Part shown: positions 4,956-40,408 of the stretch, one piece after another
Numbering within the stretch: position 1 is the stretch's first letter
How the letters are laid out: every line of letters begins with the position of its first letter
Assembly: GCA_048886185.1 (NCBI GenBank)
Contig: JBHLKY010000007.1
Location: forward strand, 99,092-163,091
Reading direction: 5' to 3'
Length of the DNA stretch: 64,000 bases
Source of the DNA: Candidatus Hermodarchaeota archaeon
GTDB lineage: Archaea > Asgardarchaeota > Heimdallarchaeia > Hodarchaeales > Hodarchaeaceae
Notes under the pieces: model-generated
Database searches by the model: none
Seen by the model: only the letters and a program-made list of their open reading frames with translations
Told to the model about the DNA's origin: nothing
Position numbers and translations under genes: made by a program

Positions 4956-6827
4956 TTGCTTAATCGTTTTTTATCCCAATTAATCAGAGATAATAAAGAA
5001 CGAGAAACGACTAAAGTAAAAACTCTCAAGCAGATTGAACTGTTTATATTAAAAGATACACTCAAAGAGGCTCTACAAGAAGTTGACACTCTATTCTCCA
5101 ACGTTGAGTTAAATGAAGCAGATAAGTTGCAGATTCACATTCTCAAAAGTTTGATTCTCACTCAAATAGGAAACTTTGATACAAGTCTAGAGCTTGGTGA
5201 ACAAATATATTTAGAATGTCAACGATTGGAAAACCCCATATTAATTATTGATGCAATCATTTCACTTGCAAACACTAATTTTAGGCTTGATAAACTTGAT
5301 AAGTGTCTGGATCTAATTGACAACGGTGAAAAACTACTTAGTACTATTACCAAGGGAAATGAAGAAGAAATTATAGATAGAACTGTTGCATTAACATATC
5401 TAAAAGGGAAGGTTTTCTGGAAAAAAGGTGAACTTGATCAAGCTCTCAAGTTTATACAGGAAAGCTTTTCTTTTAAAGAAGAAAAGAGTACTTTATATGA
5501 AACTGCTGACTATCAAAACATCTTGGGGATACTTTTTGTGGGAAAGGGAGAGTTCAATAAGGCATTATATTATTTTCAAACCAGTCTTAAGATGTTCGAA
5601 GAACTCGGTATGAAATCCTCAATCGTTAAGTCCTATAATAATATAGGATTAATACTTTGGAAAAACGGTAACTTAAGGGAAGCTTTAGGTCATTATAAAA
5701 TGAGTCTATCCTTAAGTGAAGAACTCAAAAACAATCAGTTTATCGCAGTTACATCATTGAATATAGGTCTGATTTACTGGAATATGGGAGAATTAGATAA
5801 AGCTTTAAATTATTACCAGAAAAGTTTGGAAATAAGTGAAGAAATTAAAGATAAAGATTCCATGGCATCTTGTTTTAATAATATAGGAATTATATACCAA
5901 TTCAAGGGTGAATTGGATCAATCATTAGAATACTACCAGAAAAGCTTAGCTTTAAATGAAGAACTAGGCATAAAACCAGATATAGCCCTTTGTCTTAATA
6001 ATATTGGTGAAATATATCACATGAAAGGATCCTTTGAAGTTGCGAAAGAATACTTCACTAAGAGCTTGATTTTATTTGAGGAAGTTGGTGATAATTATAA
6101 TACAAGTTTAGCTCTTTATAATCTGGTTTTGGTTTCCATTGATAGTGGATTAACAAAGGATTCACAACTATATCTTCAGAAATTACAAGAGATTTACATT
6201 AAAGAGGATAAAAGGCATATTAGTCAAAAATTTCGTTTAGCCAAAGCAATCTTACTAAAAGAAAGTGAAAGGGTAATCAATATTGCTGAAGCTCAAAAAT
6301 TATTGTATGAAGTCGCTCAAGAAGAAATGATTAGTCTTGAAAATAACGTCACTGCAAATTTAAATCTCTGTGAGCTCCTTTTACAAGAATTACGAGCTAC
6401 TGGTAATGAGGAAATACTAATGGAATTGAAAGAGGTAGTATTTCGATTGGTAAGTGTTGCAGAAGGACAAAATTCGTACATCTGGCTTGCAAAGACCTAT
6501 TGGTTACAATCAAAAATAGCCTTACTAGAGTTTGATTTAGAACGATCACAAGAATTATTGACCCAAGCAGAATTAATCGCTAATGAGAAAGGACTAACAA
6601 AACTTCTAAACAAGATTTCAAGCGAACGTGATATTCTATTAAATCAATTTAACAAATGGGAACATGTTCTTGACCAAAAACCTTCTGTCAGCGAAATCAT
6701 TGAATTGACCCAAATTGAAGCAATGGTAGAGCGAATGATCCAGAAAAAATTAGACACTTCAGATGAAGAAGTAATGCAGTATGCGATTGAATCTCGACGT
6801 TTGGTTGACATGTGGGATAAGCATTAA
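4956..6827 (+). CDS. tetratricopeptide (TPR) repeat protein
   Basis: 623 aa. It contains at least six canonical 34-aa TPR units, for example YNNIGLILWKNGNLREALGHYKMSLSLSEEL and FNNIGIIYQFKGELDQSLEYYQKSLALNEEL. TTG start. Confidence 0.8.
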   Translation: MLNRFLSQLIRDNKERETTKVKTLKQIELFILKDTLKEALQEVDTLFSNVELNEADKLQIHILKSLILTQIGNFDTSLELGEQIYLECQRLENPILIIDAIISLANTNFRLDKLDKCLDLIDNGEKLLSTITKGNEEEIIDRTVALTYLKGKVFWKKGELDQALKFIQESFSFKEEKSTLYETADYQNILGILFVGKGEFNKALYYFQTSLKMFEELGMKSSIVKSYNNIGLILWKNGNLREALGHYKMSLSLSEELKNNQFIAVTSLNIGLIYWNMGELDKALNYYQKSLEISEEIKDKDSMASCFNNIGIIYQFKGELDQSLEYYQKSLALNEELGIKPDIALCLNNIGEIYHMKGSFEVAKEYFTKSLILFEEVGDNYNTSLALYNLVLVSIDSGLTKDSQLYLQKLQEIYIKEDKRHISQKFRLAKAILLKESERVINIAEAQKLLYEVAQEEMISLENNVTANLNLCELLLQELRATGNEEILMELKEVVFRLVSVAEGQNSYIWLAKTYWLQSKIALLEFDLERSQELLTQAELIANEKGLTKLLNKISSERDILLNQFNKWEHVLDQKPSVSEIIELTQIEAMVERMIQKKLDTSDEEVMQYAIESRRLVDMWDKH

Positions 6828-17221: not shown

Positions 17222-18904
17222 TTGTTTACATGGGTAACCATTGCTTCAATAATAGCTTTTGTCATAAGCGTGTTTTTATGGATTTATGATGATAAAGGGG
17301 AGAAGATTCCTATAAAAATAATCATGCCTGTAATGGCTTTAACTGCAATTACTGCCTTGTTCAGTCTGTTATTTATCGCTTCTCCTAGTACTTTTACTCA
17401 TTCTGACGTACAAATAATGATTGTCCTATTTTTCACTGTTGTTTTTACCTTTCTTACATTAGCAGAAGAGGAAAAACTTCGGGTAATTCTTTTCGGCAGT
17501 GCCCTCGCTGTTATGCTGATGATTATATTTCTCAACCAATTATTACCTTTAGAGTACTTAAGAAGGCTTACTGATGAACAATTACATAGTATAACTGCGG
17601 AGTATTTATCAGAGGAAATTGGTAGAAAGCTCCCTCTCACTCTAGAACAGCTCATTGAACTTGCTGAGGCTCCAGATCTCTTTTTTGAAGTTGCTTTATT
17701 TGGTTCATTTATTGAATGGGAAGTTATTTCTATCGTTTTTGGGATGAGTTTGCTTGTTGCAGTGCTTTCAGACACTGGTCTCTTTGATATGGTTTCCATT
17801 CGTACAATTAAAGCTTCTCAAGGAACACCCAGGAGGCTTTTAGTATTGGTTTTTTTCCTCACACTAATATTATCAGCCTTATTAGATAATACAACAGCTA
17901 TTATCCTGCTTAGTAGTATTACTATCACAGTCACGCGGGGATTGGATCTAAATCCAAAACCCTATATTTTAGCAGAGGTTGCAGCTACAGTAATGGCTGG
18001 AATAATAACAGTTATAGGTTCTTTACCAGGTATTCTGATTGCCAGTAAGAAAGCAGGTGATATACCATTCATGACATTTACTATTGTTAATTCTGTATTT
18101 ATTGGGGTAGCAGTTATGATATCGATCGGATATATCTTTATGGTCTTTAAAAATGAGTTATCTGTCACAGAAGATATGAGAATCGACCCAACAGTGGTGA
18201 GTTTTTTGGATGAGTGGTCTGTGGTGGACTCAAGGAGAAAATTGTACCTTGGATCAATAGTTTTAGGTGTAGTTATCTTTGGATTGGTACTATCAAGTAA
18301 CATTGGATTATCAGTAGGATTTGTAGCAATAACTGGAGCCATACTTGCAATCATCGTCACAAGAGCCGATATTGATAGCGTTATCCATGAAATTGAACTT
18401 GATTCAATATTATTTTTCATTGGATTGTTTGTATTGGTTGGTGCCTTACAAATATCAGGTGTTCTTGAGGTTTTAGCTGAAATTATGCTTGAAATATCTG
18501 GAGGTGATCCTCTTGTACTTACAATTATTATTATAACAGCTATTTCTATTTTAAGCGCAGTTGTAGCAAATATCCCCATAACAATTGCTTTAGCAGAGGT
18601 TATTCGAATCCTTCTTACTGATCCAGAATTCGCTGGACAAGCTGTTTTTGGATTTCCTGTAGAAGGTTTATTATGGTTTACTTTACTATATGCTGTAACT
18701 TTTGGTGGTGGATTTACTCCATTTGGAACTGTTACAGGAGTTATAGGTGTTCAAGTCCTACAGCAGGAGGGTCATCCAGTAACATTTATGAACTATGTAA
18801 AGAAAATGGCTCCATTGAGTGTAATACTTCTAGTTCTAGGTTTTCTCTATTTGTTAATTCTCCAATTAACAGGAATTTTACCATTATTATTAGGCTTATT
18901 ATAA
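17222..18904 (+). CDS. polytopic permease, ArsB/NhaD (citrate transporter-like) anion permease superfamily
   Basis: 560 aa. It has two hydrophobic halves separated by a hydrophilic insert. Family assignment is by overall architecture only. TTG start. Confidence 0.5.
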   Translation: MFTWVTIASIIAFVISVFLWIYDDKGEKIPIKIIMPVMALTAITALFSLLFIASPSTFTHSDVQIMIVLFFTVVFTFLTLAEEEKLRVILFGSALAVMLMIIFLNQLLPLEYLRRLTDEQLHSITAEYLSEEIGRKLPLTLEQLIELAEAPDLFFEVALFGSFIEWEVISIVFGMSLLVAVLSDTGLFDMVSIRTIKASQGTPRRLLVLVFFLTLILSALLDNTTAIILLSSITITVTRGLDLNPKPYILAEVAATVMAGIITVIGSLPGILIASKKAGDIPFMTFTIVNSVFIGVAVMISIGYIFMVFKNELSVTEDMRIDPTVVSFLDEWSVVDSRRKLYLGSIVLGVVIFGLVLSSNIGLSVGFVAITGAILAIIVTRADIDSVIHEIELDSILFFIGLFVLVGALQISGVLEVLAEIMLEISGGDPLVLTIIIITAISILSAVVANIPITIALAEVIRILLTDPEFAGQAVFGFPVEGLLWFTLLYAVTFGGGFTPFGTVTGVIGVQVLQQEGHPVTFMNYVKKMAPLSVILLVLGFLYLLILQLTGILPLLLGLL

Positions 18905-19128
18905 GATAACTGATATTATTAACAACAAAAACTCTTCATTGATTATTCTCCGAAAATAAACGAAAAACGTATAGACCAAGCTACCAATCCCTTAAGCCAT
19001 CTGATCGGTTCGTTTAATTTCCACAAAGACAAAAAGGACGAGAAGAGCTAAAGCCCTTGTACAATGAGTGAGAGTCAAGAGGCATTATTTTAGATGGCAT
19101 GAGAACTCCTTCTTTTGGTTATCTGCTG

Positions 19129-19147
19129 AAAGATTTTAGGAAAAATC
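19129..19147 (+). repeat. copy A of the 19-nt motif AAAGATTTTRGGAAAAATC
   Basis: The sequence aaagattttaggaaaaatc, overlapping the 3' end of gene 19136..19408. Confidence 0.5.
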
Positions 19148-19408
19148 GCCATCTCTCCGCTCACCTCTTCTTCCTTCAGTAGGAATATAATAAACTTGTA
19201 AAAGCCAAGTAACGAGGTAAGCGATAAGCAGAAAATATACAACTGCAACAATAGCTTGGATAATGTCTTGAAGTATCATGAGTAGGGGAGGAAGAAACCC
19301 AAAGAGTACACTACTAACAAAGAGAATAACCAAAACGAGTCCAGAAAGAAGGAAAAGCCCCTTTTTGGTAAGAAGTCCTTTCCATTTTGAGATTTTGAGA
19401 TCTCGCAT
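19136..19408 (-). CDS. small hypothetical membrane protein
   Basis: 90 aa with two predicted TM helices. I recognise no family. Confidence 0.35.
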   Translation of the reverse strand: MRDLKISKWKGLLTKKGLFLLSGLVLVILFVSSVLFGFLPPLLMILQDIIQAIVAVVYFLLIAYLVTWLLQVYYIPTEGRRGERRDGDFS

Positions 19409-19464
19409 TTTTTCCCTATTTAAGACAGACCCTTGACTAATAAAAAGCTATCGAATGGTAAACT

Positions 19465-19481
19465 CAATTTTAGGAAAAATC
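19465..19481 (+). repeat. copy B (partial) of the 19-nt motif
   Basis: The sequence caattttaggaaaaatc, in the divergent intergenic region. Confidence 0.45.
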
Positions 19482-19548
19482 TCACTTTCCATAATTTCTG
19501 AGAGAAATGAACCTGGGTGTGATTAGTGGGAATATAATTCGCCAAATC

Positions 19549-19567
19549 AAAGATTTTGGGAAAAATG
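19549..19567 (+). repeat. copy C of the 19-nt motif
   Basis: The sequence aaagattttgggaaaaatg, about 70 nt upstream of the TTG start at 19636. Confidence 0.5.
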
Positions 19568-19635
19568 AAATACAATTTATAAAGGTAATTAGGGAGATCT
19601 ACATCAAGCTCTTGTACGATTAGTGGTTTAAGACG

Positions 19636-20190
19636 TTGAAGGATAAAGTAAGAAAATTTTTGCAGAGAAGAATAGGGAAAGAAGCTAGAGAGAAGCTTTT
19701 TGCGAATTCGAATGTTGAGGATAATTCTGTCCCAAGACTCTGGCAGTGGATTGAGGAATGTTTTAGAGAACTGGAGTTAGGGGAACACGCAGACAGAGCG
19801 AAAGAGATTGACAAGTTTACAATGGAACTATTTGGCGCCCATACTCAAACCAAGCGGTGGATAGAGGATTTTGAGACAGTAACACAAGTGCGAAATCTGG
19901 GAACCATTTACAATCTGATAAGGGAATGTAATTATTCTGTTCCGTGTTGTACGGAAAATGTATTGAACATACGAAGAAAATTTTTTCAATTGCATCGGCC
20001 AACAAAGCTTAGGTTTTATTGTATGCAAGGCCCCTGTCCTTTGTACGAATCCAAGACACAGTATTGTAATCATCACAAAAGCTTGTACATGGAGATCTTT
20101 CACTATTTAGAACGAAATTTACCCTGGAAGTATTACGAGGACGGGGAAGGCGTATTAGTTGCAAATAATACAGAATGGTTTGATGCCTGA
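19636..20190 (+). CDS. hypothetical Cys/His-rich protein
   Basis: 184 aa. The C-terminal half is CC..C....C..C..C.HH..H-rich (VPCCTEN, CMQGPCPLY, CNHH). It may bind metal. I recognise no family. TTG start. Confidence 0.4.
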   Translation: MKDKVRKFLQRRIGKEAREKLFANSNVEDNSVPRLWQWIEECFRELELGEHADRAKEIDKFTMELFGAHTQTKRWIEDFETVTQVRNLGTIYNLIRECNYSVPCCTENVLNIRRKFFQLHRPTKLRFYCMQGPCPLYESKTQYCNHHKSLYMEIFHYLERNLPWKYYEDGEGVLVANNTEWFDA

Positions 20191-20263
20191 ACCGATTTTC
20201 ATCTGAGGAAGGAGCCAACTCCAGGGGAGAGTAATAACCAATTAAACATGGTAAGTTCTGACG

Positions 20264-20282
20264 AAAGATGTCGGGAAAAATC
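20264..20282 (+). repeat. copy D of the 19-nt motif
   Basis: The sequence aaagatgtcgggaaaaatc, about 75 nt downstream of the stop at 20190. Confidence 0.45.
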
Positions 20283-20692
20283 TTAATTACCACACAGTTA
20301 GCCCTTGTGATTAGAGCTGCTATATTAGTGTTTGGAAAACTCTTGATGAATGGATCACTACTAATAATTGCGAAAGAACCAGCATTGGTTCTGTAGTGAT
20401 CACTCAGGCTGACTTGAATCCTCCTGATAAAAGCTGAAACATAGTACCTAAATTAAAGCTGAATAAAAGAAAGAAACGAGGTAATTGAAAAGAAAGGTAT
20501 CTTCTCTGTCTCCGAAAATGGATCATAGCATAAGTCAAGAGAAAAATCTTTCGAAAAAGGAGATAATTAAAACTCAGATATTTCTTTTAGAATATTCCTG
20601 ATAATAAGAGTATTTATAGAACAACTAATAACACCTCAGTAACAGACCCAATTAATTTAATATAACTTTTATTCGAATTTGAGGTTTTTTTT

Positions 20693-21328
20693 ATGAATTT
20701 TGATCCACGGACAGTTATTAGTATTCGTATCATTGGTATTTTGGGAATCTTATCTCCTATTATAGCTTATAGTGGTATTATAATTGCCATTTTATTAAAT
20801 CTGGATTGGTTTAGTTGGACGGATAGCGCATTGTCTGATTTAGGACATTATGGTAACTTAGGACTCCGAGCATTTATTTTTAACGGTGGATTATTTATTA
20901 GTGGTATTTTCGCTTTAATTTTTTGCCTAGCTTTTTACCATCAAGAAAAAGAAAAGTTTAAGGATGATAAAATCGGGAGATTGCTTATAATTATTGGAAT
21001 GATTGCGTTTTTCTTTGCTGTTCTAGCATTAATTGGCATTAGTATTTTTTCAGAAGATTTTGGGGCTATTCATAGGTTTGTATCAGAAGTCTTTTTCACC
21101 TGTATTCCCTTCGCTATGTGGTTTTTTGGAGGTGCATTTTATCGCCAAAAGAAATTGAAAGTTATGGGTTTGTTAGCACTTCTTATTGGCACCATAGCAG
21201 GTATAACATGGATTTCTTATTTCATTCTCCATTTATTTTCTGGAGTGGCTATCCCTGAGGCTATTTCGTCAATTGCTGTGAGTTTTTGGATTGTTTTACG
21301 TGGTGTACAGTATTACTGGTATGGATAG
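20693..21328 (+). CDS. hypothetical integral membrane protein (about 6 TM)
   Basis: 211 aa. Hydrophobic profile. An SD site GAGGT lies upstream. Confidence 0.45.
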   Translation: MNFDPRTVISIRIIGILGILSPIIAYSGIIIAILLNLDWFSWTDSALSDLGHYGNLGLRAFIFNGGLFISGIFALIFCLAFYHQEKEKFKDDKIGRLLIIIGMIAFFFAVLALIGISIFSEDFGAIHRFVSEVFFTCIPFAMWFFGGAFYRQKKLKVMGLLALLIGTIAGITWISYFILHLFSGVAIPEAISSIAVSFWIVLRGVQYYWYG

Positions 21329-21524
21329 TCAAAAATCACCATAATATTGCTCATTATGGATCCTTTCAAGGTTTAAAAACTGACAAATAAAAGGAGAAAA
21401 ATTCATTGTGTTTATCATGGTTTCTTTTTCCTTCCTCTTGTTATTAGCATAAGCTTTTAGATTATCACACGACAGAAGCATAAATCATCTTGAATTCACG
21501 AACTGATAATAAGGAGAATCCATT

Positions 21525-22928
21525 TTAATCCTTCTCTATGATTAGTTCATCAGGGAATTTCGTAAAGACAAATAGAGCCACTAACATTGGGATAAAAGCA
21601 AAAGCTCCCATGAGTAAAATTGGGCCTACTGGGTCATAGATGTAATACGGAATATCTAAGCCAGTTCCAATATAATCAGGATGCGGAATGATGTCAATAA
21701 CAAATAGACCTAGTATGAGTCCTTCTAAAAAGATAGCAACGGCAATAGCTAATTTTTCTGTGAATTCTTGAAACGCATAATACATTGATTCCCTTCTAAG
21801 ACCTAATCTTTTCTCCTCCTCATCCACAATATCCCCAACAATGGTTGGTGGAAATATCCATAAACCACCCATTCCGAAACCAATAGTACAGATCATAATG
21901 AATGCAATAAATAGATTCTTGGGGAAGATAAGGAGTAGGAAGCTCAATAGTAAGGGGATTGTGAAAACAATCATAGAAATAATGAATGCTCTTTTCTTGC
22001 CCAAATATCGAGGACTTGAGAGTTTTCCCCAGATAGGAAAACTAATAATCGCTACGACAATCCAGGGTGCTGTTAATACCATTATTTGATCAAGTTCTAG
22101 AGCAAGAACACTTACTGCGAAGAATGGCATTACTGCATTTAGAATTCGGAATGAGAACTGCATCCCAATCTGATTAGTCAAGAAGATTTGATAAGCCTTG
22201 TTCTGAACACTTATCTTCAATGATTCCAATAATGAGACATGGGGTTGTTTCCTAATTTCATCACCAGGTAATTCTTTGATAGGAAGAACGGCAATGATTG
22301 TTAAAAAGACAATAATTCCTAAAATAGTGCTTGTATTTGAGAATCCAATGTTATCATACATGATTGGAGCAATTACAACACCAACAATATTCGCTAAAAT
22401 CGCGAAAATGTTACCCCAAACTGCTAATGTTACGCGTTCACCTGAGGTAGGAGCAATTTCAGGTAAAAGTGCATAAATGGGAACGAATACAAACGTAAAT
22501 AGAGCATCAAAAATAGATATTATAATAAAAAGATATAGTATAAGAAGTAATTCTCCCAACCCATCTGAAAAAAGAGATAGTAGAAATATTGGAGGATTGA
22601 AAAGAAGTATAAAACTTAAAGTCATAGGTAGAATTCCAACAAGAACGAATGGTCGACGCCGTCCCCATCTTTTCCATCGAGTATTATCAGATAACCAACC
22701 CACTAAAGGATTCACGAAAGCATCAACTAATCGTCCAACCATTAGAGCAGCCCCTACCAAAGCTCCGATTACCATTGGATGGAGGGAAACGCCAGTCATT
22801 CCTTCAGTTAAATAGAAAAATAGGACAAATCCTAATATTGATGCATTTATTATAGAAATTCCAAAATTAGCTGTGGAATAAAGAAAAATTTCCTGTCTTG
22901 TGAGTTTTCTTTGGTGAAATGTATTCAT
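21525..22928 (-). CDS. MFS transporter, glycoside-pentoside-hexuronide (GPH):cation symporter family
   Basis: 467 aa. The sequence D..RWKRWGRRRPFVLVG matches the GPH family R-x-GRRRP signature after TM2, and there are 12 TM helices. Confidence 0.75.
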   Translation of the reverse strand: MNTFHQRKLTRQEIFLYSTANFGISIINASILGFVLFFYLTEGMTGVSLHPMVIGALVGAALMVGRLVDAFVNPLVGWLSDNTRWKRWGRRRPFVLVGILPMTLSFILLFNPPIFLLSLFSDGLGELLLILYLFIIISIFDALFTFVFVPIYALLPEIAPTSGERVTLAVWGNIFAILANIVGVVIAPIMYDNIGFSNTSTILGIIVFLTIIAVLPIKELPGDEIRKQPHVSLLESLKISVQNKAYQIFLTNQIGMQFSFRILNAVMPFFAVSVLALELDQIMVLTAPWIVVAIISFPIWGKLSSPRYLGKKRAFIISMIVFTIPLLLSFLLLIFPKNLFIAFIMICTIGFGMGGLWIFPPTIVGDIVDEEEKRLGLRRESMYYAFQEFTEKLAIAVAIFLEGLILGLFVIDIIPHPDYIGTGLDIPYYIYDPVGPILLMGAFAFIPMLVALFVFTKFPDELIIEKD

Positions 22929-22992: not shown

Positions 22993-23673
22993 TTAATCCC
23001 TGCTACCACCAAAGAGGTAGATAAAAATCAATAATAATTCTTTTAATAGATAAATTATGTCATAAAAGAGCCACAGTGCCATGAGAGCTGGTGATGAGAA
23101 TGCTCTATTCTCAAGACGAGCAAAATCAAGGAACATATATATACTGAAAATGGCTGCTCCGAATAGACTGATTATCAGATAAAATACTGGATCCGCACTG
23201 TAAAAGAAGAGCCCAAACAATAAGAGGATGAAAAAGCAGATAACTAAAACAATGACTAATTTTGTTATTTGATTGATCCTTTTATATGTATGGCCTGAGA
23301 ACAAGTACGCTGCCAAGACGACAATTGTGGTTGTACCCACTGCCCCGACAACTAAAGCAACATCTAAAGCAAGAGCTATATAGACAAGTAATGAAAGGGT
23401 TATGGAACTACATACAGCAAAAGAGTACAAGAGGATAGTAGCTGTTGATTCACTAAATTGTGTCCTAAATAAACCTGAAAACAACAGAATCATGATGATT
23501 ATAAATTCACCTGCGCTTCCTACCCAATAAAGAGCTAATGGAACATCTAGCCATAACATTATCCCAACAGTGATAGTTGCTAACATTAAAGCAATACCTA
23601 GATGTCTATAGGCTTCTATTTTTATATCATATCCTGTATATTGCCTCGTTTCCATTCTATAATAATATGACAC
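22993..23673 (-). CDS. Bax inhibitor-1/YccA family membrane protein
   Basis: 226 aa with 7 TM helices. The C-terminal MALWLFYDIIYLLKELLLIF segment is typical of BI-1. Confidence 0.65.
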   Translation of the reverse strand: MSYYYRMETRQYTGYDIKIEAYRHLGIALMLATITVGIMLWLDVPLALYWVGSAGEFIIIMILLFSGLFRTQFSESTATILLYSFAVCSSITLSLLVYIALALDVALVVGAVGTTTIVVLAAYLFSGHTYKRINQITKLVIVLVICFFILLLFGLFFYSADPVFYLIISLFGAAIFSIYMFLDFARLENRAFSSPALMALWLFYDIIYLLKELLLIFIYLFGGSRD

Positions 23674-28022: not shown

Positions 28023-29465
28023 CTATTTTAAGTTATTAGCTGCAATTTTATCTAATTCATTTTTTAGGTTTTCATCAACAGCTTGTCTAGGTGGACGTTT
28101 GCTTAATTTAATAGCAATTTCTTTTGCTCTGTTACGAGCTGATGTTTCACCACCTTTCCTCCATTGATCACGGGTCTCTCTATTTATGATCTGTAAATTT
28201 TCAACTGTAAAAGGGAAATAAAGCTCTTTTCTGAATAAACTTAGCGTAGTTGGGTGAGATAGTAATGAAATATTAGCATCATAATCACTAAGAATATCTT
28301 GAGCAAATGGTACGCCATGATCTGTGATCCCTTGAAGAAGATGTTTAACCATTCCTGCGATTTCATTATCAATGATTAATTTCTCGAAGCTTTGAGTTGA
28401 TTCGAAATCCAGCATACCAGGCCCAGAAATCATATTGATTCCAGCGAGACCAGCTAGCAATGCCCCCATGCCTCCCTCAAATCCTGCTTGAGCATCAGGA
28501 ACTTTTGAGTCAGATAATGTCATATATGCATGTGTTGGTAGATTTAAGAACTTTCCCATTTGAGCATCTGCAATATTAATCATCATTGTCTCAATTGCCC
28601 CCATGGGGGTCGTTCCATTCCTCATATCAAATACTGCTGGAGATCCTCCCCATATAACAGGAGAATTTCTCTTGGCTAGTTGTGAAATTACAAGTCCTGC
28701 CAAAGATTCAGCGGTATGTTGAGTGACACAGCCAATTAAAGTTATAGGAGCTGTTGAACCTGCAAGAGGCATACTAATGAATTCTGATGGGATTCCGCTT
28801 CGTGCTGCGTCAATTACAGATTGAGTAGTTAGATTTGACCACATCAAGGGGGGACTTGGGCATGCATCAAAAATCGCCAAAGGTTTTTCAGCTAGTTTTT
28901 CCTTTGAAGTTCTTGTTGCCTCCAATAACTCTTGCATTATAGAAAAGCTTTCTATTCTAAAAGTGCCTGTAACAATCGGTTTGGAACAATTAATTAATGC
29001 GATGTACAAACGATGCCAATCTTGAGCATTATTAGGGACATCAGAACAAACAAGTGAGGTTGATTGAGCTGCAAAATTGGGTAGATGGTCCACAATTTTT
29101 GAAAACATTATGAAATCTGAAGATAATGCTTCTCGTATTGTCTTTGTTTCTAGATCTTGTACGAAAATTGCAGCAGATCCAGGATCAAAGTGAATATTAT
29201 CTTTTGAGAGCTGGATTACTTCTCTTCCTTCTCTATCATATAATTTGATTTCAGAGGGAGCGTTGGTGCGTAGCTTTTCAACTAGATCCTCTGGTATAAA
29301 GTACCTTAAATTTTTATAATGGATCCCTTCCTCCTGTAATAAGCTTTGAGCATCAGGATTTTCAATTATTACTCCTTGGTTGTGAAGAATAGCTTTAGCT
29401 TCATTGAATATCTTTTTCATGTATTCATTGGTCAATAATTCAGTTTTGGGTCTTAAAATTGTCAA
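28023..29465 (-). CDS. MttB-superfamily (trimethylamine methyltransferase-like) substrate:corrinoid methyltransferase, non-pyrrolysine type
   Basis: 480 aa. The N-terminus (YMKKIFNEAKAILHNQGVIIENPDAQSLL) and the overall length fit the MttB TIM-barrel. No in-frame TAG interrupts the frame. Confidence 0.75.
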   Translation of the reverse strand: MTILRPKTELLTNEYMKKIFNEAKAILHNQGVIIENPDAQSLLQEEGIHYKNLRYFIPEDLVEKLRTNAPSEIKLYDREGREVIQLSKDNIHFDPGSAAIFVQDLETKTIREALSSDFIMFSKIVDHLPNFAAQSTSLVCSDVPNNAQDWHRLYIALINCSKPIVTGTFRIESFSIMQELLEATRTSKEKLAEKPLAIFDACPSPPLMWSNLTTQSVIDAARSGIPSEFISMPLAGSTAPITLIGCVTQHTAESLAGLVISQLAKRNSPVIWGGSPAVFDMRNGTTPMGAIETMMINIADAQMGKFLNLPTHAYMTLSDSKVPDAQAGFEGGMGALLAGLAGINMISGPGMLDFESTQSFEKLIIDNEIAGMVKHLLQGITDHGVPFAQDILSDYDANISLLSHPTTLSLFRKELYFPFTVENLQIINRETRDQWRKGGETSARNRAKEIAIKLSKRPPRQAVDENLKNELDKIAANNLK

Positions 29466-38662: not shown

Positions 38663-40408
38663 TTAAAATGATTCAGTTAGGTTGAGTTGAACGCTGTTGG
38701 GTGTGAGCTTGTCAATTCTACCAAAACCTATACGTTCAAGCTGTATTATCTCACCTACCTGAAATTCTAAAACTGATTTTTCTATAAATCCACTTTTAAT
38801 TGTTAAAGAATTGGGATTAATCTTACCATCTATATATAAAGGACCTGGCACATTTATTGATAGATCAGTACTGTATTCTTTTGGTACCCATTGAATTTTT
38901 GGGTAATTTAGAGATGGATCTTCAATATAGTGGGCCTTAATAATATACCTTTTATCAGTCAATGTTTTTATTTCATAAATTTCAATATTAAAAAGATCCT
39001 TAAGCCGAACAAATTCCTTTGGCTTTAATAAATTTAGATCACTAAAACTAATGTAAAAAATTTCACTATAAGGGATTTTTCGCATCCCCAAATCAGTATT
39101 TTTTGGGTGATATGGTATTTTTACATCCTTTCCTGGCACATCAGCAACTTGTAGTTCAATTGGATCGACAACAGAAAATAATCGTCTTGTACTGTCGTCA
39201 ACAATCTTCCTATTGATTGCTAATAAAATTGACATATCCAGCTCTGATTGACCTGTACTTAATTGCATTTCAAAAGCCAATTGACGAATAGTTTCAGGAA
39301 CAATCCCACGTCGACGCATTCCTGAAAGGGTGCTTAGCCGAAAATCATTCCAATTTGAAATAATGCCTTTATTTATAAGTTCACGAATTCGTCTTTTTGC
39401 TACTGGAACATCAGACAATCGAAGTCTTGAAAAATGTACAAAAATAGGTGATCGCAGGCCAAGAACGTCTCTAATGTAATTCTGCAAAGGAACTTTCTGA
39501 ACAAATTCTTCCGATCTCAAAACATGAGTTATTCCAAGTATTGAATCCTCTATAGAAACTGCAAAATCATATAGAGGCCAAACACGATATTTATCCCCTT
39601 GTAAACAATGAGATGCTTCTATTACTCGCATTATAGTAGGATCACGCAATGCAGCATTTTTGTGAGACATATCTATCTTTAATCTAAGTGATAATTCCCC
39701 CTCAAGACTATCTTCAAGCATACGTTCCCACAATTCGAGGTTATCCGAAGATGTTGAAATTCGATGAGGACACTCTTTTTGTTTGTGCCTATTTTCGCGA
39801 ACAACTTTTACGGGGCAGCCGCATACATACGCATTTCTTTCTTCTATTAATTTCTGAACATAGTCATAATACAATGGGATTCTATCGGATTCATTAACTT
39901 CCTCATCCCATTCTATGCCCATAAACCGAAAATCTTCCCTGATGGCATCATAATACTTCAGTTCAACCTTCCGGGGATTGGTGTCTTCAAAACGCAGAAT
40001 CAGCTTACCATTGTATCTCTTCGCATAGTAATAATTTATGAACCCTGCATATCCGTGTCCTATATGTAAATACCCGCTTGGTTCAGGTGGTAGTCTTGTA
40101 CACACTTTACCATCAATAGCTCCTTCAAGCGGAGGAAGTGTTGTCTTTTTTTTCTTAATTCTTTCTTCTTTTTTAAAAAACTCTGGATATTTTTCTTGAC
40201 AGTGCTGTTCGATTTCTTTTGGACTCAAAGAGTTAACAAAAGTAATTTTAGATGAAGTTAAAGTCGCGATCTCCTTTACTTGACTTTTTAGCCCTGGAAA
40301 AGCAGCAATTATTGCTCCCATTACAGAACCAGTTTTTGCTTTACCGTGTTTCATGGCGTTTTCATAAACAAATTTGTCAATAATTTTTTCAAGATCCAAA
40401 ATATCCAC
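38663..40408 (-). CDS. gltX: glutamyl-tRNA synthetase, archaeal/eukaryal-type class I
   Basis: 581 aa. It has the HIGH region PEPSGYLHIGH and the THVLRSEEF segment, which is related to the GlxRS catalytic core. The N-terminal about 90 aa are a helical appended domain. Confidence 0.8.
   Translation of the reverse strand: MDILDLEKIIDKFVYENAMKHGKAKTGSVMGAIIAAFPGLKSQVKEIATLTSSKITFVNSLSPKEIEQHCQEKYPEFFKKEERIKKKKTTLPPLEGAIDGKVCTRLPPEPSGYLHIGHGYAGFINYYYAKRYNGKLILRFEDTNPRKVELKYYDAIREDFRFMGIEWDEEVNESDRIPLYYDYVQKLIEERNAYVCGCPVKVVRENRHKQKECPHRISTSSDNLELWERMLEDSLEGELSLRLKIDMSHKNAALRDPTIMRVIEASHCLQGDKYRVWPLYDFAVSIEDSILGITHVLRSEEFVQKVPLQNYIRDVLGLRSPIFVHFSRLRLSDVPVAKRRIRELINKGIISNWNDFRLSTLSGMRRRGIVPETIRQLAFEMQLSTGQSELDMSILLAINRKIVDDSTRRLFSVVDPIELQVADVPGKDVKIPYHPKNTDLGMRKIPYSEIFYISFSDLNLLKPKEFVRLKDLFNIEIYEIKTLTDKRYIIKAHYIEDPSLNYPKIQWVPKEYSTDLSINVPGPLYIDGKINPNSLTIKSGFIEKSVLEFQVGEIIQLERIGFGRIDKLTPNSVQLNLTESF

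Follow-up and report, generated by a model that had tools for sequence, protein, structure and literature searches.

The window, the 64-kb stretch of DNA analysed here (G+C ~35%), belongs to a Heimdall/Hodarchaeales genome and contains a lineage-specific island located between a CitMHS/SLC13 permease gene and an MFS transporter gene (Table 1). The island comprises two orphan genes, a DUF998 gene and all repeat units of the window. Synteny with CP070695.1 (L042) and DZ2M.341 (L044) stops at 18894 and restarts at 21535, and both carry an unrelated 88/89-aa Zn-ribbon gene at that place. The island is an insertion or replacement. Moreover, no repeat unit was found at the syntenic 'empty' sites of L042 and L044, and therefore the island was not built here by unit-by-unit recombination.

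Table 1 Features of the island. Positions are those of the window; the strand of the units (U1-U5) is given in rRNA sense.
Feature	Position	Strand	Description
Lineage-specific island	18895..21534		2.6 kb
90-aa gene	19136..19408	-	orphan cassette gene; small membrane protein (predicted)
184-aa gene	19636..20190	+	Cys/His-rich orphan protein
U1	18943..19077	-	without P1; independent profile 18978-19077, E 5e-7
U2 (probable)	19098..19204	-	most decayed; A2 profile (window copies included) only
U3	19419..19545	-	independent profile 19481-19532, E 1e-4; A2 profile 19430-19543
U4 (partial)	19547..19628	-	weak; A2 profile E 0.007, independent profile E 0.09
U5	20256..20336	-	short form without P2; independent profile 20258-20316, E 3e-6
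Motif copy 1	19129-19147	+	P1 palindrome of U2; AAAGATTTTAGGAAAAATC, 0 mismatches
Motif copy 2 (partial)	19463-19481	+	P1 of U3; CTCAATTTTAGGAAAAATC, 15/19
Motif copy 3	19549-19567	+	P1 of U4; 1 mismatch
Motif copy 4	20264-20282	+	P1 of U5; 2 mismatches, palindrome degraded

The two orphan genes are transcribed divergently from a 227-bp intergenic region, and neither product has a match in Pfam, PADLOC, PHROG, NCBIfam or PDB. The 90-aa protein has one known homolog (P0003, 69% identical), which is encoded on a Hodarchaeales contig and also adjoins a unit, and the dN/dS of its gene is 0.58. At the homologous 89-aa gene of L006, the place of the motif is taken by another palindrome. The 184-aa gene (dN/dS 0.62) forms the core of a ~660-700-bp segment extending from about 19505/19547 to 20206. 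Besides repeat-driven matches, an exhaustive search gave one credible remote homolog of its product, P0061. The segment is 93.7% identical to a different locus of CP070695.1, whereas the syntenic core genes are only 72-77% identical, and dS is 0.08 for the 184-aa cassette versus 1.15 for the neighbouring core gene CitMHS. Such identity at a different locus, against a core identity of ~76%, demonstrates that the 184-aa cassette was transferred recently.

The original prediction had pointed to a cluster of same-orientation copies of a 19-nt motif within 1.15 kb, at a number above chance. A motif scan of the window bears this out, with four copies all on the + strand. At no more than three mismatches, the window contains only three full copies, versus 0.40 expected, and none of 100 shuffles reached three. 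The exact 14-mer core ATTTTRGGAAAAAT occurs at three sites of the window, all within 19133-19566; at two mismatches this core is not enriched window-wide (11 found versus 8 expected). The relations of the copies to the genes are also as predicted. Copy 1 overlaps the stop codon and the last three codons of the 90-aa ORF, copies 2 and 3 lie inside the divergent region, ~20 and 8 nt upstream of the TATA-like boxes of the two genes, and copy 4 is located 74 nt 3' of the stop codon of the 184-aa ORF. Two features had been overlooked. The motif core is an imperfect palindrome, GATTTT-N4-AAAATC, and the flanks of each copy carry more conserved sequence belonging to a far longer repeat.

The motif, here termed P1, is an optional AT palindrome inside a repeat unit of ~130-170 nt and is present in 16 of 42 non-window units. 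A second palindrome of the unit, P2, is likewise internal and optional. The predicted hairpins of P1 and P2 are weak (-1.3 to -3.4 kcal/mol, copy 1 having a DNA hairpin of -3.4 kcal/mol), and for copy 4 hairpin prediction found none. The core of copy 2, ATTTTAGGAAAAATC, is exact, and the same P1 sequence recurs in another genome at the equal position of a unit (L026, 4087-4245).

The repeat unit corresponds, in reverse complement, to the final ~30 nt of archaeal 23S rRNA together with the 3' trailer down to an oligo-T stretch. In five loci (L019, L024, L026, L038, and L039), matches to the Rfam model LSU_rRNA_archaea (RF02540; E 1e-14 to 1e-100) are contiguous with units and continue from the right arm of the unit on the opposite strand. 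Particularly, the match in L026 spans model positions 2545-2987 and runs off the contig. In the Rfam alignment, CUGCCACUAAUCGCACAAGGGCUAA sits on the conserved 23S 3' terminus, and the T-rich end of the trailer forms the opposite end of the unit. At the rRNA side, ~30 units stop roughly 12 nt after the start of GCGATTAGTGG. A second class of repeats, ~450 nt long, is represented by five loci that stop at ~315 nt, just 5' of the sarcin-ricin loop, and the neighbours differ in each of the five. The units are only 60-90% alike, and many are truncated or decayed. Neither terminal inverted repeats nor target duplications were seen in the units. RNAalifold on 29 units returned four predicted pairs without covariation, and no conserved RNA structure was found. 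P1 is located at a constant internal position of a decayed dispersed repeat, so that the original suggestion of a miniature-repeat remnant holds as far as the repeat remnant is concerned. The repeat does not resemble a miniature transposon, being derived from 23S rRNA, devoid of terminal inverted repeats and co-oriented within each locus.

Five decayed units at 18943-20336 bound the two orphan genes of the window, and the flanks of the motif copies are homologous over ~100 nt. Two profiles were used to define them, an independent profile of 47 non-window units and the A2 profile, whose alignment includes the window copies. The independent profile matched U1, U3, and U5, all on the + strand, at E 5e-7 to 1e-4. 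The 23S remnant of the window units consists of right arms of only 20-25 nt, and their tie to the family is provided by the profile matches. No rRNA gene was found in the window by Rfam, and permissive E-values gave only noise at 18500-21000 (SNORD11B, HOTAIRM1, leuA-Halobacteria). A weak A2-profile match at 39273-39321 was rejected as ordinary sequence, which the independent profile did not reproduce.

U1 has its right arm AAGCCCTTGTACAATGAGTGAG at 19051-19072 and the terminator-side signature TCTCCGAAAAT at 18947 in its left end; its extent to the left of 18978 was assigned by visual inspection. It is supported also by repeat families D5 and D19, the A2 alignment and the left-end consensus. 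U2 overlaps the 3' end of the 90-aa ORF, shares 26 nt with U5 (TCTGCTGAAAGATTTTAGGAAAAATC, 81%) and AGTAGGAATATAAT with U3, and is supported by repeat families D1 and D12 and the A2 alignment. U3 has an internal deletion in its left part. Its P2 lies at 19491-19509, its right arm AACCTGGGTGTGATTAGTGGGA occupies 19511-19532, and the unit can be aligned with units of L001, L002, and L006. In U4, a TATA-like sequence (TTTATAAA, 19576-19583) occupies the place expected for P2, and the right arm AAGCTCTTGTACGATTAGTGG lies at 19606-19626. U4 belongs to repeat family D5 and is conserved along with the 184-aa gene in L001 and L002; its position suggests that it serves as the promoter and 5' leader region of this gene. 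U5 carries its right arm AGCCCTTGTGATTAGAG at 20300-20316 and is supported by the A2 alignment and repeat families D1 and D7.

Array architecture and co-orientation are established features of this repeat family. In 23 non-redundant Hodarchaeota/Heimdall loci, which are draft-genome fragments derived mostly from metagenome-assembled genomes, 91 units were identified, and none of the 23 loci shows mixed orientation (P~1e-20). One 29-kb contig contains 15 units on a single strand. In L026, a 23S match is followed by four co-oriented units, and the array thus directly follows a probable real 23S gene. L026 is the only locus in which an array adjoins a probable complete 23S gene, which itself runs off the contig, and the array of the window has no adjoining rRNA gene. 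The units are intergenic and lie between accessory genes, one to a few at a time, which may point in either direction, the counts for ORFs next to units being 34 versus 24 and 34 versus 30. Behind an upstream gene that shares its direction, a unit begins at a median of ~25 nt past the stop codon of that gene. The cargo of the arrays is diverse and rich in small GTPases, and includes Ras/Rab-like and Rag/Arf-like GTPases as well as Kelch, LRR, HEAT, and TPR proteins. The same cassettes were found with different neighbours in different genomes. Multi-copy status of the units is also indicated by the many contigs that terminate in one, and by assembly gaps of CP070695.1, which adjoin units.

We propose, with a probability of about one half, that the units are att-like scars left by serial insertion of cassettes at the 23S 3' end. 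A copy of the 23S tail would be carried by circular gene cassettes or by small elements and would recombine with the resident 23S tail or an existing unit, either site-specifically or through homology. Every insertion would add cargo and one further co-oriented unit, and the arrays would later decay while pieces of them move. The window would then represent a small array in decay, made up of five units and two orphan cassettes. Att sites would match the target gene in its 3' part, share its orientation and form an array starting from it; repeats of this kind are present in L026 and not in the window. The units are also long for a classical att site. We infer the recombination mechanism and its enzyme, because no recombinase was found in the scanned ORFs. 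Pfam was run on ~50 array ORFs, a regex for tyrosine-recombinase motifs was applied, and recurrent unknown proteins were compared with NCBIfam. In or adjoining the elements, these ~50 ORFs of draft-genome fragments include no integrase, no recombinase of the tyrosine or serine type, no transposase and no reverse transcriptase, and a recombinase may be encoded elsewhere in the genomes. A recurrent 512-aa unknown family located beside a small ERCC4-like nuclease was considered as a recombinase candidate; it has no recognisable catalytic motif and no PDB relative. Scans with the right arm and left core found no units on viral contigs, only isolated chance matches, and no tRNA genes were found as alternative targets. 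A fixed crossover point was also considered, since the end of the 184-aa segment (...CATCTGA) and its start ((C)AAAG-P1), when joined, would rebuild the unit core CTGACGAAAG. We do not rely on this idea, because the boundaries of a second shared cassette (L027 versus L041) are not at one fixed point of the unit and no half-unit match occurs at 20150-20206.

Several other explanations were weighed against serial cassette insertion. The 23S trailer could be a reused functional module, duplicated behind genes as a processing or termination signal or as a source of antisense RNA. The oligo-T end of the unit in rRNA sense, its typical start shortly after same-direction stop codons, and the TATA-like box and leader that U4 gives to the 184-aa gene would all be in line with such a role. 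However, the orientation of units is constant within each locus while that of neighbouring genes varies, no conserved secondary structure was found among the 29 units, many copies are truncated or decayed, and the 315-nt 23S fragments are left unexplained. We therefore regard a reused module as rather improbable.

The original prediction had put an operator set first. In this reading, the P1 palindromes would bind a dimeric transcription factor controlling the divergent 90-aa/184-aa pair. The palindromic core, the location of copies 2 and 3 just upstream of TATA-like boxes, and the identity of copy 3 in CP070695.1 and L002 agree with this idea, and the weakness of the predicted hairpins makes a protein site on double-stranded DNA more plausible than a folded structure. 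Yet the motif is an optional module of a unit that occurs at least 91 times elsewhere, in intergenic positions where 3' and 5' ends of genes are faced equally often. In the window, copies 1 and 4 lie away from promoters, at the 3' ends of genes, and the palindrome is lost in copy 4. The conservation of copy 3 in the relative is no greater than that of the whole segment, which was transferred recently at 93.7% identity and accounts for it. At the single orthologous promoter (L001/L002), conservation of the flanks comes close to that of the motif. The window has no further motif copies and thus no sign of a regulon. An operator set is unlikely, and P1 is most probably carried along by the unit as a passenger. 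It may have a secondary, co-opted regulatory role in U3 and U4, because these two units now supply the divergent promoter region.

A non-autonomous transposon, either a MITE or a palindrome-associated element of the IS200/IS605 type, would also be a short dispersed intergenic repeat with small palindromes (P1 and P2). Single-strand, replication-coupled insertion could bias its orientation and produce the strict co-orientation, and the units break assemblies as insertion sequences do. This reading has little probability in view of the genuine 23S 3'-terminal sequence that forms one end of the unit, the ~315 nt of 23S in five loci, and the one locus that continues into a probably whole 23S gene. 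The lack of visible terminal inverted repeats and target duplications, the internal and optional nature of P1 and P2, and the absence of TnpA/TnpB-like or other transposase ORFs from the scanned arrays point in the same direction. Still further behind is the idea of retro-copies, reverse transcripts of the pre-rRNA 3' end with a fixed 3' end and variable 5' truncation. Such copies would fit the fixed trailer-terminator end and the different extents into 23S (~30 versus ~330 nt), but the 5' ends fall into two sharp classes instead of a continuum, and the ordered co-oriented arrays adjoining a probable 23S gene are unlike random insertion. Moreover, no reverse transcriptase was found in the scanned array ORFs, and neither target-site duplications nor A/T tails beyond the native trailer were seen, which makes retro-copies very improbable. 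Finally, chance clustering of AT-rich low-complexity sequence, with which the low G+C content and the unenriched relaxed core would agree, is refuted by the shuffles, the flank alignment, the independent profile (E down to 5e-7) and the equal unit position of P1 in other genomes.

Serial cassette insertion therefore remains the reading that we favour. More tentatively, and with some doubt, Hodarchaeales may possess a new cassette-capture system, whose recombination site stems from the 23S 3' end and trailer and which inserts cassettes serially and shuffles accessory genes between lineages. A putative recombinase would insert small circular cassettes both downstream of the rRNA gene and at units already present, and the co-oriented arrays would spread accessory genes between lineages, notably the expanded eukaryote-like small GTPases and repeat-domain proteins. 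Hodarchaeales are the archaeal lineage closest to eukaryotes. If the proposal is true, the rRNA gene tail would act in these archaea as a landing pad and bookkeeping repeat for cassettes, providing a concrete route by which accessory genes are rapidly acquired, duplicated, and exchanged. In the lineage, Ras/Rab-like and Rag/Arf-like GTPases as well as Kelch, LRR, HEAT, and TPR proteins are conspicuously expanded, and could have multiplied by this route. It would also account for the frequent breaks of Hodarchaeota assemblies at units, and would place an rRNA-targeted case beside the few systems of cassette and island accretion (integrons, tRNA-gene islands, and SCC). In annotation, this 19-nt motif should be disregarded as a regulon signal.

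P1 resembles operators of the TrmB/Lrp/MarR type in being a short AT-rich palindrome with two copies just upstream of TATA-like boxes, and differs from them as an optional part of a dispersed rRNA-derived repeat that is found off promoters as well. Mobile elements specific to rDNA are well known in eukaryotes, including the R2/R1 retrotransposons and Pokey. In archaea, the Heimdallarchaeum element HeimM2 is inserted beside a 16S gene (Wu et al. 2022, PMC8813620). These elements have in common with the present arrays the ribosomal RNA locus as insertion target. However, they are autonomous, lie within or next to the rRNA gene, and make no arrays of duplicated rRNA tails around unrelated cargo.

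Archaeal integrons have been reported to be enriched in Asgard archaea (Ghaly et al. 2022, PMC9668308). Like the arrays described here, integron arrays contain short cassettes between co-oriented repeats of about 60-150 nt, carry orphan or accessory cargo, and present the same cassette in different contexts. In contrast, the units have neither the R''/R' cores of attC nor a conserved imperfect hairpin, the repeat is derived from rRNA, and IntI was not seen. The cassette genes run in either direction, with neighbouring ORFs directed only 34:24 and 34:30 toward one side of the co-oriented repeats. The attC pattern R''(RYYYAAC)...R'(GTTRRRY) with its hairpin was absent from the 29 units analysed with RNAalifold; core-like strings were limited to AGCYAAC...GTTAGCC, which are separated by 29 nt, stemless and lost in the units bearing P2, and the attC reading was rejected.

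Islands and cis-mobilizable elements accrete at the 3' ends of tRNA and tmRNA genes, and SCCmec and pseudo-SCC arrays at the 3' end of rlmH (orfX). As in those systems, the direct repeats copy the 3' part of an RNA gene and are co-oriented with it, the array begins at an apparently intact gene (here in L026), many modules have no recombinase of their own, and the cargo is accessory and variable. The target here is instead the 23S rRNA 3' end with its trailer, the repeat is much longer (~130-170 nt, and ~450 nt in the second class), the modules are very small (0.3-4.5 kb), and no integrase was found among the scanned array ORFs. In addition, arrays or their fragments also occur away from rRNA genes, as in the window. 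The closest parallels to the arrays of Hodarchaeota are the tandem accretion of islands at tRNA-gene 3' ends and the cassette arrays of integrons.

The 19-nt motif AAAGATTTTRGGAAAAATC is present in the window as three full copies and one partial copy, all on one strand as the original prediction stated, and an ORF check places them as described: over the 3' end of the 90-aa gene (a predicted small membrane protein), in the divergent promoter region, and just downstream of the Cys/His-rich 184-aa gene. No further match at up to three mismatches occurs in the 64-kb window. The 14-mer core, searched exactly in the window, occurs three times, confined to 19133-19566, and forms an imperfect palindrome (GATTTT-N4-AAAATC). 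Short-seed repeat finding shows that the copies have flanks in common: TCTGMYG precedes copies 1 and 4, TCTYAMTTWCCA follows copies 2 and 4, and a second motif, AGCYCTTGTRYGATTAG, recurs at 19051, 19511, 19606, and 20299. Compared by BLAST with the retrieved loci, the region yields two more matches of ~100 nt, 5-6 kb downstream of the gene for P0001 (the homolog of the 184-aa protein), and a further one on a Hodarchaeales contig, upstream of P0003, to which alone the 90-aa gene is homologous. Aligned, eight such segments clearly form a family at least 100 nt long, in which the motif occupies one fixed internal position and is missing from some members. The suggested remnant of a miniature repeat is correct as to a repeat, but understated; the motif is an internal piece of a longer repeat related to the 23S rRNA tail. 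A scan with its conserved right arm AGCYCTKGTRYGATTAGTG, one genome per species, gives 35 loci, ~26 of them in Hodarchaeota, Heimdallarchaeota, or 'Promethearchaeota' genomes and many at contig ends. A metagenome scan added more loci, and profile searches recovered dozens of units. Of the archaeal hits, at least two (L015, L028) fall inside a coding gene and match by chance.

According to Rfam, archaeal LSU rRNA, on the opposite strand, follows the right arm without a break. In locus L026 the match covers LSU model positions 2545-2987 and, because it runs off the contig, is probably a genuine 23S gene; that of L039 covers 2866-2987. In a residue-level alignment, CUGCCACUAAUCGCACAAGGGCUAA falls on the conserved 23S 3' terminus. 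Extended in the opposite direction, the unit goes on for ~140 nt as far as a terminal T-rich stretch, which reads ...GCTGTTTTNTATTTTCGG in the rRNA sense. Because one end runs into LSU rRNA and the other is T-rich ~140 nt on, the unit is identified, from alignment, as the last ~30 nt of 23S together with the whole 3' trailer; the window reads it on the strand antisense to rRNA. P1 (the motif) and P2 (AATTTT-N3/4-AAAATT) are AT palindromes that form optional insertions in the unit. The trailer adjoining the probable 23S gene of L026 has neither, and P1 of L026 4087-4245 is identical to that of the window. The rRNA-side boundary is discrete, ~30 units stopping roughly 12 nt past the start of GCGATTAGTGG. 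In five loci, which belong to four genomes, the boundary lies ~315 nt into 23S, just 5' of the sarcin-ricin loop, with different adjoining genes in each. These long fragments are decaying pseudogenes, as exemplified by the mutated sarcin-ricin loop of L013. The ~310-nt fragments begin at nearly one rRNA position, which points to a second place in the 23S gene where breaks recur.

A profile made only from units outside the window recovers four of the five window units, U4 only weakly, whereas U2 is more decayed. Each motif copy is the P1 of one unit (U2, U3, U4, and U5, respectively), and U1 is devoid of P1. U4 is partial; a TATA-like TTTATAAA lies where P2 would be, and the right arm stops 9 nt ahead of the TTG start of the 184-aa ORF. 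Because of this position, U4 may now supply the promoter and leader region of that gene. In addition, a 42-aa hydrophobic ORF (MSGKILITTQLALVIRAAILVFGKLLMNGSLLIIAKEPALVL) starts at an ATG created inside motif copy 4 and crosses U5; it could encode a small membrane peptide or could be spurious.

Positions of the repeat units (for U1, U3, U4, and U5 the span of the profile hit), motif copies, and neighbouring features
Feature	Locus	Position	Strand	Detail
U1	window	18978-19077	+	profile E 5e-7
U2	window	19098-19204		only 26-nt and 14-nt blocks in common with U5 and U3
U3	window	19481-19532	+	profile E 1e-4
U4	window	19605-19628	+	profile E 0.09
U5	window	20258-20316	+	profile E 3e-6
Motif copy 1	window	19129	+	0 mismatches
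Motif copy 2, partial	window	19463-19481	+	15/19, core ATTTTAGGAAAAATC exact
Motif copy 3	window	19549	+	1 mismatch
Motif copy 4	window	20264	+	2 mismatches
TATA-like box	window	19576-19583
90-aa ORF	window	19136-19408	-
184-aa ORF	window	19636-20190	+
42-aa ORF	window	20268-20396	+
Bax1-I family gene	window	22993-23673	-
PYLIS_3 match	window	28418-28517	-	51 bits, gathering score 38
MTTB-family ORF	window	28023-29465	-	480 aa
~310-nt 23S 3' fragment	L019	257-566		LSU model 2721-2973
~310-nt 23S 3' fragment	L024	3759-4068		LSU model 2721-2973
~310-nt 23S 3' fragment	L038	4278-4584		LSU model 2721-2973
~310-nt 23S 3' fragment	L013	~6387-6672
~310-nt 23S 3' fragment	L021	~6039-6358
Three-gene block	L001	10622-13751
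Three-gene block	L009	2097-5018
100-N gap	L001	9767-9866
100-N gap	L001	16092-16191
GTPase-rich segment	L013	839-2624
GTPase-rich segment	L032	801-2003

Throughout the arrays, units are intergenic and spaced 0.3-4.5 kb apart, with one to three genes between them. Their orientation is uniform in all 23 non-redundant loci with at least two units (91 units; probability under random orientation ~1e-20), including 15 units on one strand of a single 29-kb contig, and the L026 array starts at the probable 23S gene. Genes beside the units point either way (34 vs 24 upstream, 34 vs 30 downstream). Where the upstream gene is in the rRNA sense, the unit begins a median of ~25 nt past its stop codon. A reused terminator or RNA module would suit this placement and the T-rich end; a consensus secondary structure of the unit was looked for and none was found, and we consider this explanation unlikely. 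The P1 and P2 hairpins are weak (-1.3 to -3.4 kcal/mol). The proposed operator set, slightly less likely still, would fit a palindromic core near divergent promoters, but is not supported, as P1 is optional and occurs in 16 of 42 non-window units from several genomes. Assemblies evidently break at units: both 100-N gaps of the 'complete' chromosome CP070695.1 adjoin units, and the first is read through by a Logan contig (L002).

The window is syntenic with CP070695.1 (L042) and DZ2M.341 (L044) on either side of the region. Synteny stops at 18894 and restarts at 21535; both relatives instead carry an unrelated 88/89-aa zinc-ribbon gene, with no units at the syntenic site. In a collection of 5.8 billion proteins the 184-aa protein has a single homolog, P0001 (89% identical), encoded in a different neighbourhood on the Heimdallarchaeota chromosome CP070695.1; the window comes from a related metagenome-assembled genome labelled 'Promethearchaeota'. 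Between the two genomes, nucleotide identity is 93.7% for the 184-aa segment versus 72-77% for the syntenic core, and dS is 0.08 versus 1.15 for CitMHS (dN/dS 0.62 versus 0.07). While the core is syntenic, the segment lies inside another unit array of CP070695.1, ~190 genes from the CitMHS ortholog by locus tags. Its identity, dS, and different locus indicate that the segment moved between lineages recently. Compared with L009, the CP070695.1 array L001 has one module more, made up of U4 and the 184-aa gene, with a unit on one side and a conserved block of three genes on the other. Other cassettes, too, occur in more than one genome, at least one with different neighbours: YT5_056 and WORE3 carry a 124-aa plus 196-aa pair, 88.6% identical, in different surroundings, and two genomes have an amidase cassette in common at 86% identity. 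Constraint on both window cassette ORFs is weak (dN/dS 0.58 for the 90-aa and 0.62 for the 184-aa ORF, versus 0.07 for the adjacent permease gene). In an exhaustive protein search, the one credible remote homolog that the 184-aa protein has is P0061 (129 aa), which is Cys-rich too; the search also gives P0060, an ORF of six tandem peptide copies (FVQLHRPTTLSF...) resembling residues ~117-128 (FFQLHRPTKLRF). Elsewhere in the window, the Bax1-I gene, between MFS transporter and acetyl-CoA synthetase genes, is a second small insertion relative to CP070695.1. An ORF of the MTTB family, open without an in-frame stop and adjoining an S-methyltransferase gene, contains the Rfam match to PYLIS_3 (the mttB pyrrolysine insertion sequence).

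The array cargo is diverse and accessory. It comprises Ras/Roc-like GTPases (24 ORFs in 14 loci), Gtr1/RagA/Arf-like GTPases (8 ORFs in 7 loci), NosD/beta-helix, TPR, Kelch, LRR, and HEAT proteins, methyltransferases, AbiEi, amidase, MFS transporters, CbiMQO, and many orphan genes. Small GTPases are strikingly abundant (L010, L013, L014, L019, L029, L032, L034, L038, and others), and Kelch, LRR, HEAT, and TPR proteins are common too. The three-gene block, kept in arrays of two genomes at 79% nucleotide identity, encodes proteins of 130 and 512 aa and an ERCC4-like nuclease of 132 aa. The 512-aa family is found in six loci, has no Pfam, NCBIfam, or PDB match, and the block is possibly array-associated machinery.

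We favour, with a probability of about 0.5, the reading that units are att-like duplicates left by serial insertion. Small cassettes would insert one after another at the 23S gene tail and at existing units, each insertion would leave a duplicate unit, and decay and relocation would follow; the accretion of islands at the 3' ends of tRNA genes is an analogue, as are integron arrays. What the data show is the homology between unit and 23S tail, the layout and uniform orientation of the arrays, their discrete boundaries, the nature of the window island as an insertion, and the recent transfer of one cassette; the recombination itself, the enzyme behind it, and any circular form in between are what we infer. 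Against this reading, units are unusually long when compared with att sites, the window island occupies a site without a unit in relatives, crossover positions are inconsistent in a second cassette pair, and no recombinase was found among the array ORFs. A strand-biased non-autonomous transposon would accommodate the uniform orientation; neither integrase nor transposase was detected among ~50 array ORFs scanned, and we regard it as improbable. Retro-copies are highly improbable, the same ORFs containing no reverse transcriptase. Chance is negligible, because three full motif copies stand against 0.40 expected and none of 100 dinucleotide-preserving shuffles of the window reaches three, in agreement with the original prediction.

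The feature behind the motif is co-oriented 23S-tail repeat arrays bounding exchangeable cassettes in Hodarchaeales. No units were found on the viral contigs scanned, and no tRNA genes within or close to the arrays. In full-text literature searches, arrays of rRNA-tail repeats were nowhere described for Asgard archaea. Previous reports describe enrichment of classical integrons in Asgard (PMC9668308), aloposons together with a Heimdallarchaeum element inserted next to the 16S gene (PMC8813620), and a mobile-like region of Atabeyarchaeia carrying small GTPases (PMC11529989). The Hodarchaeales arrays may work like integron or tRNA-gene island arrays. They differ from integrons in having no attC cores, no hairpin, and no IntI seen, and gene orientation is mixed, with a slight excess of one direction. 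They agree with integration at RNA-gene 3' ends in repeat and orientation, though not in a recombinase. The 23S-tail arrays appear new, though akin to a known type of system, and deserve follow-up.
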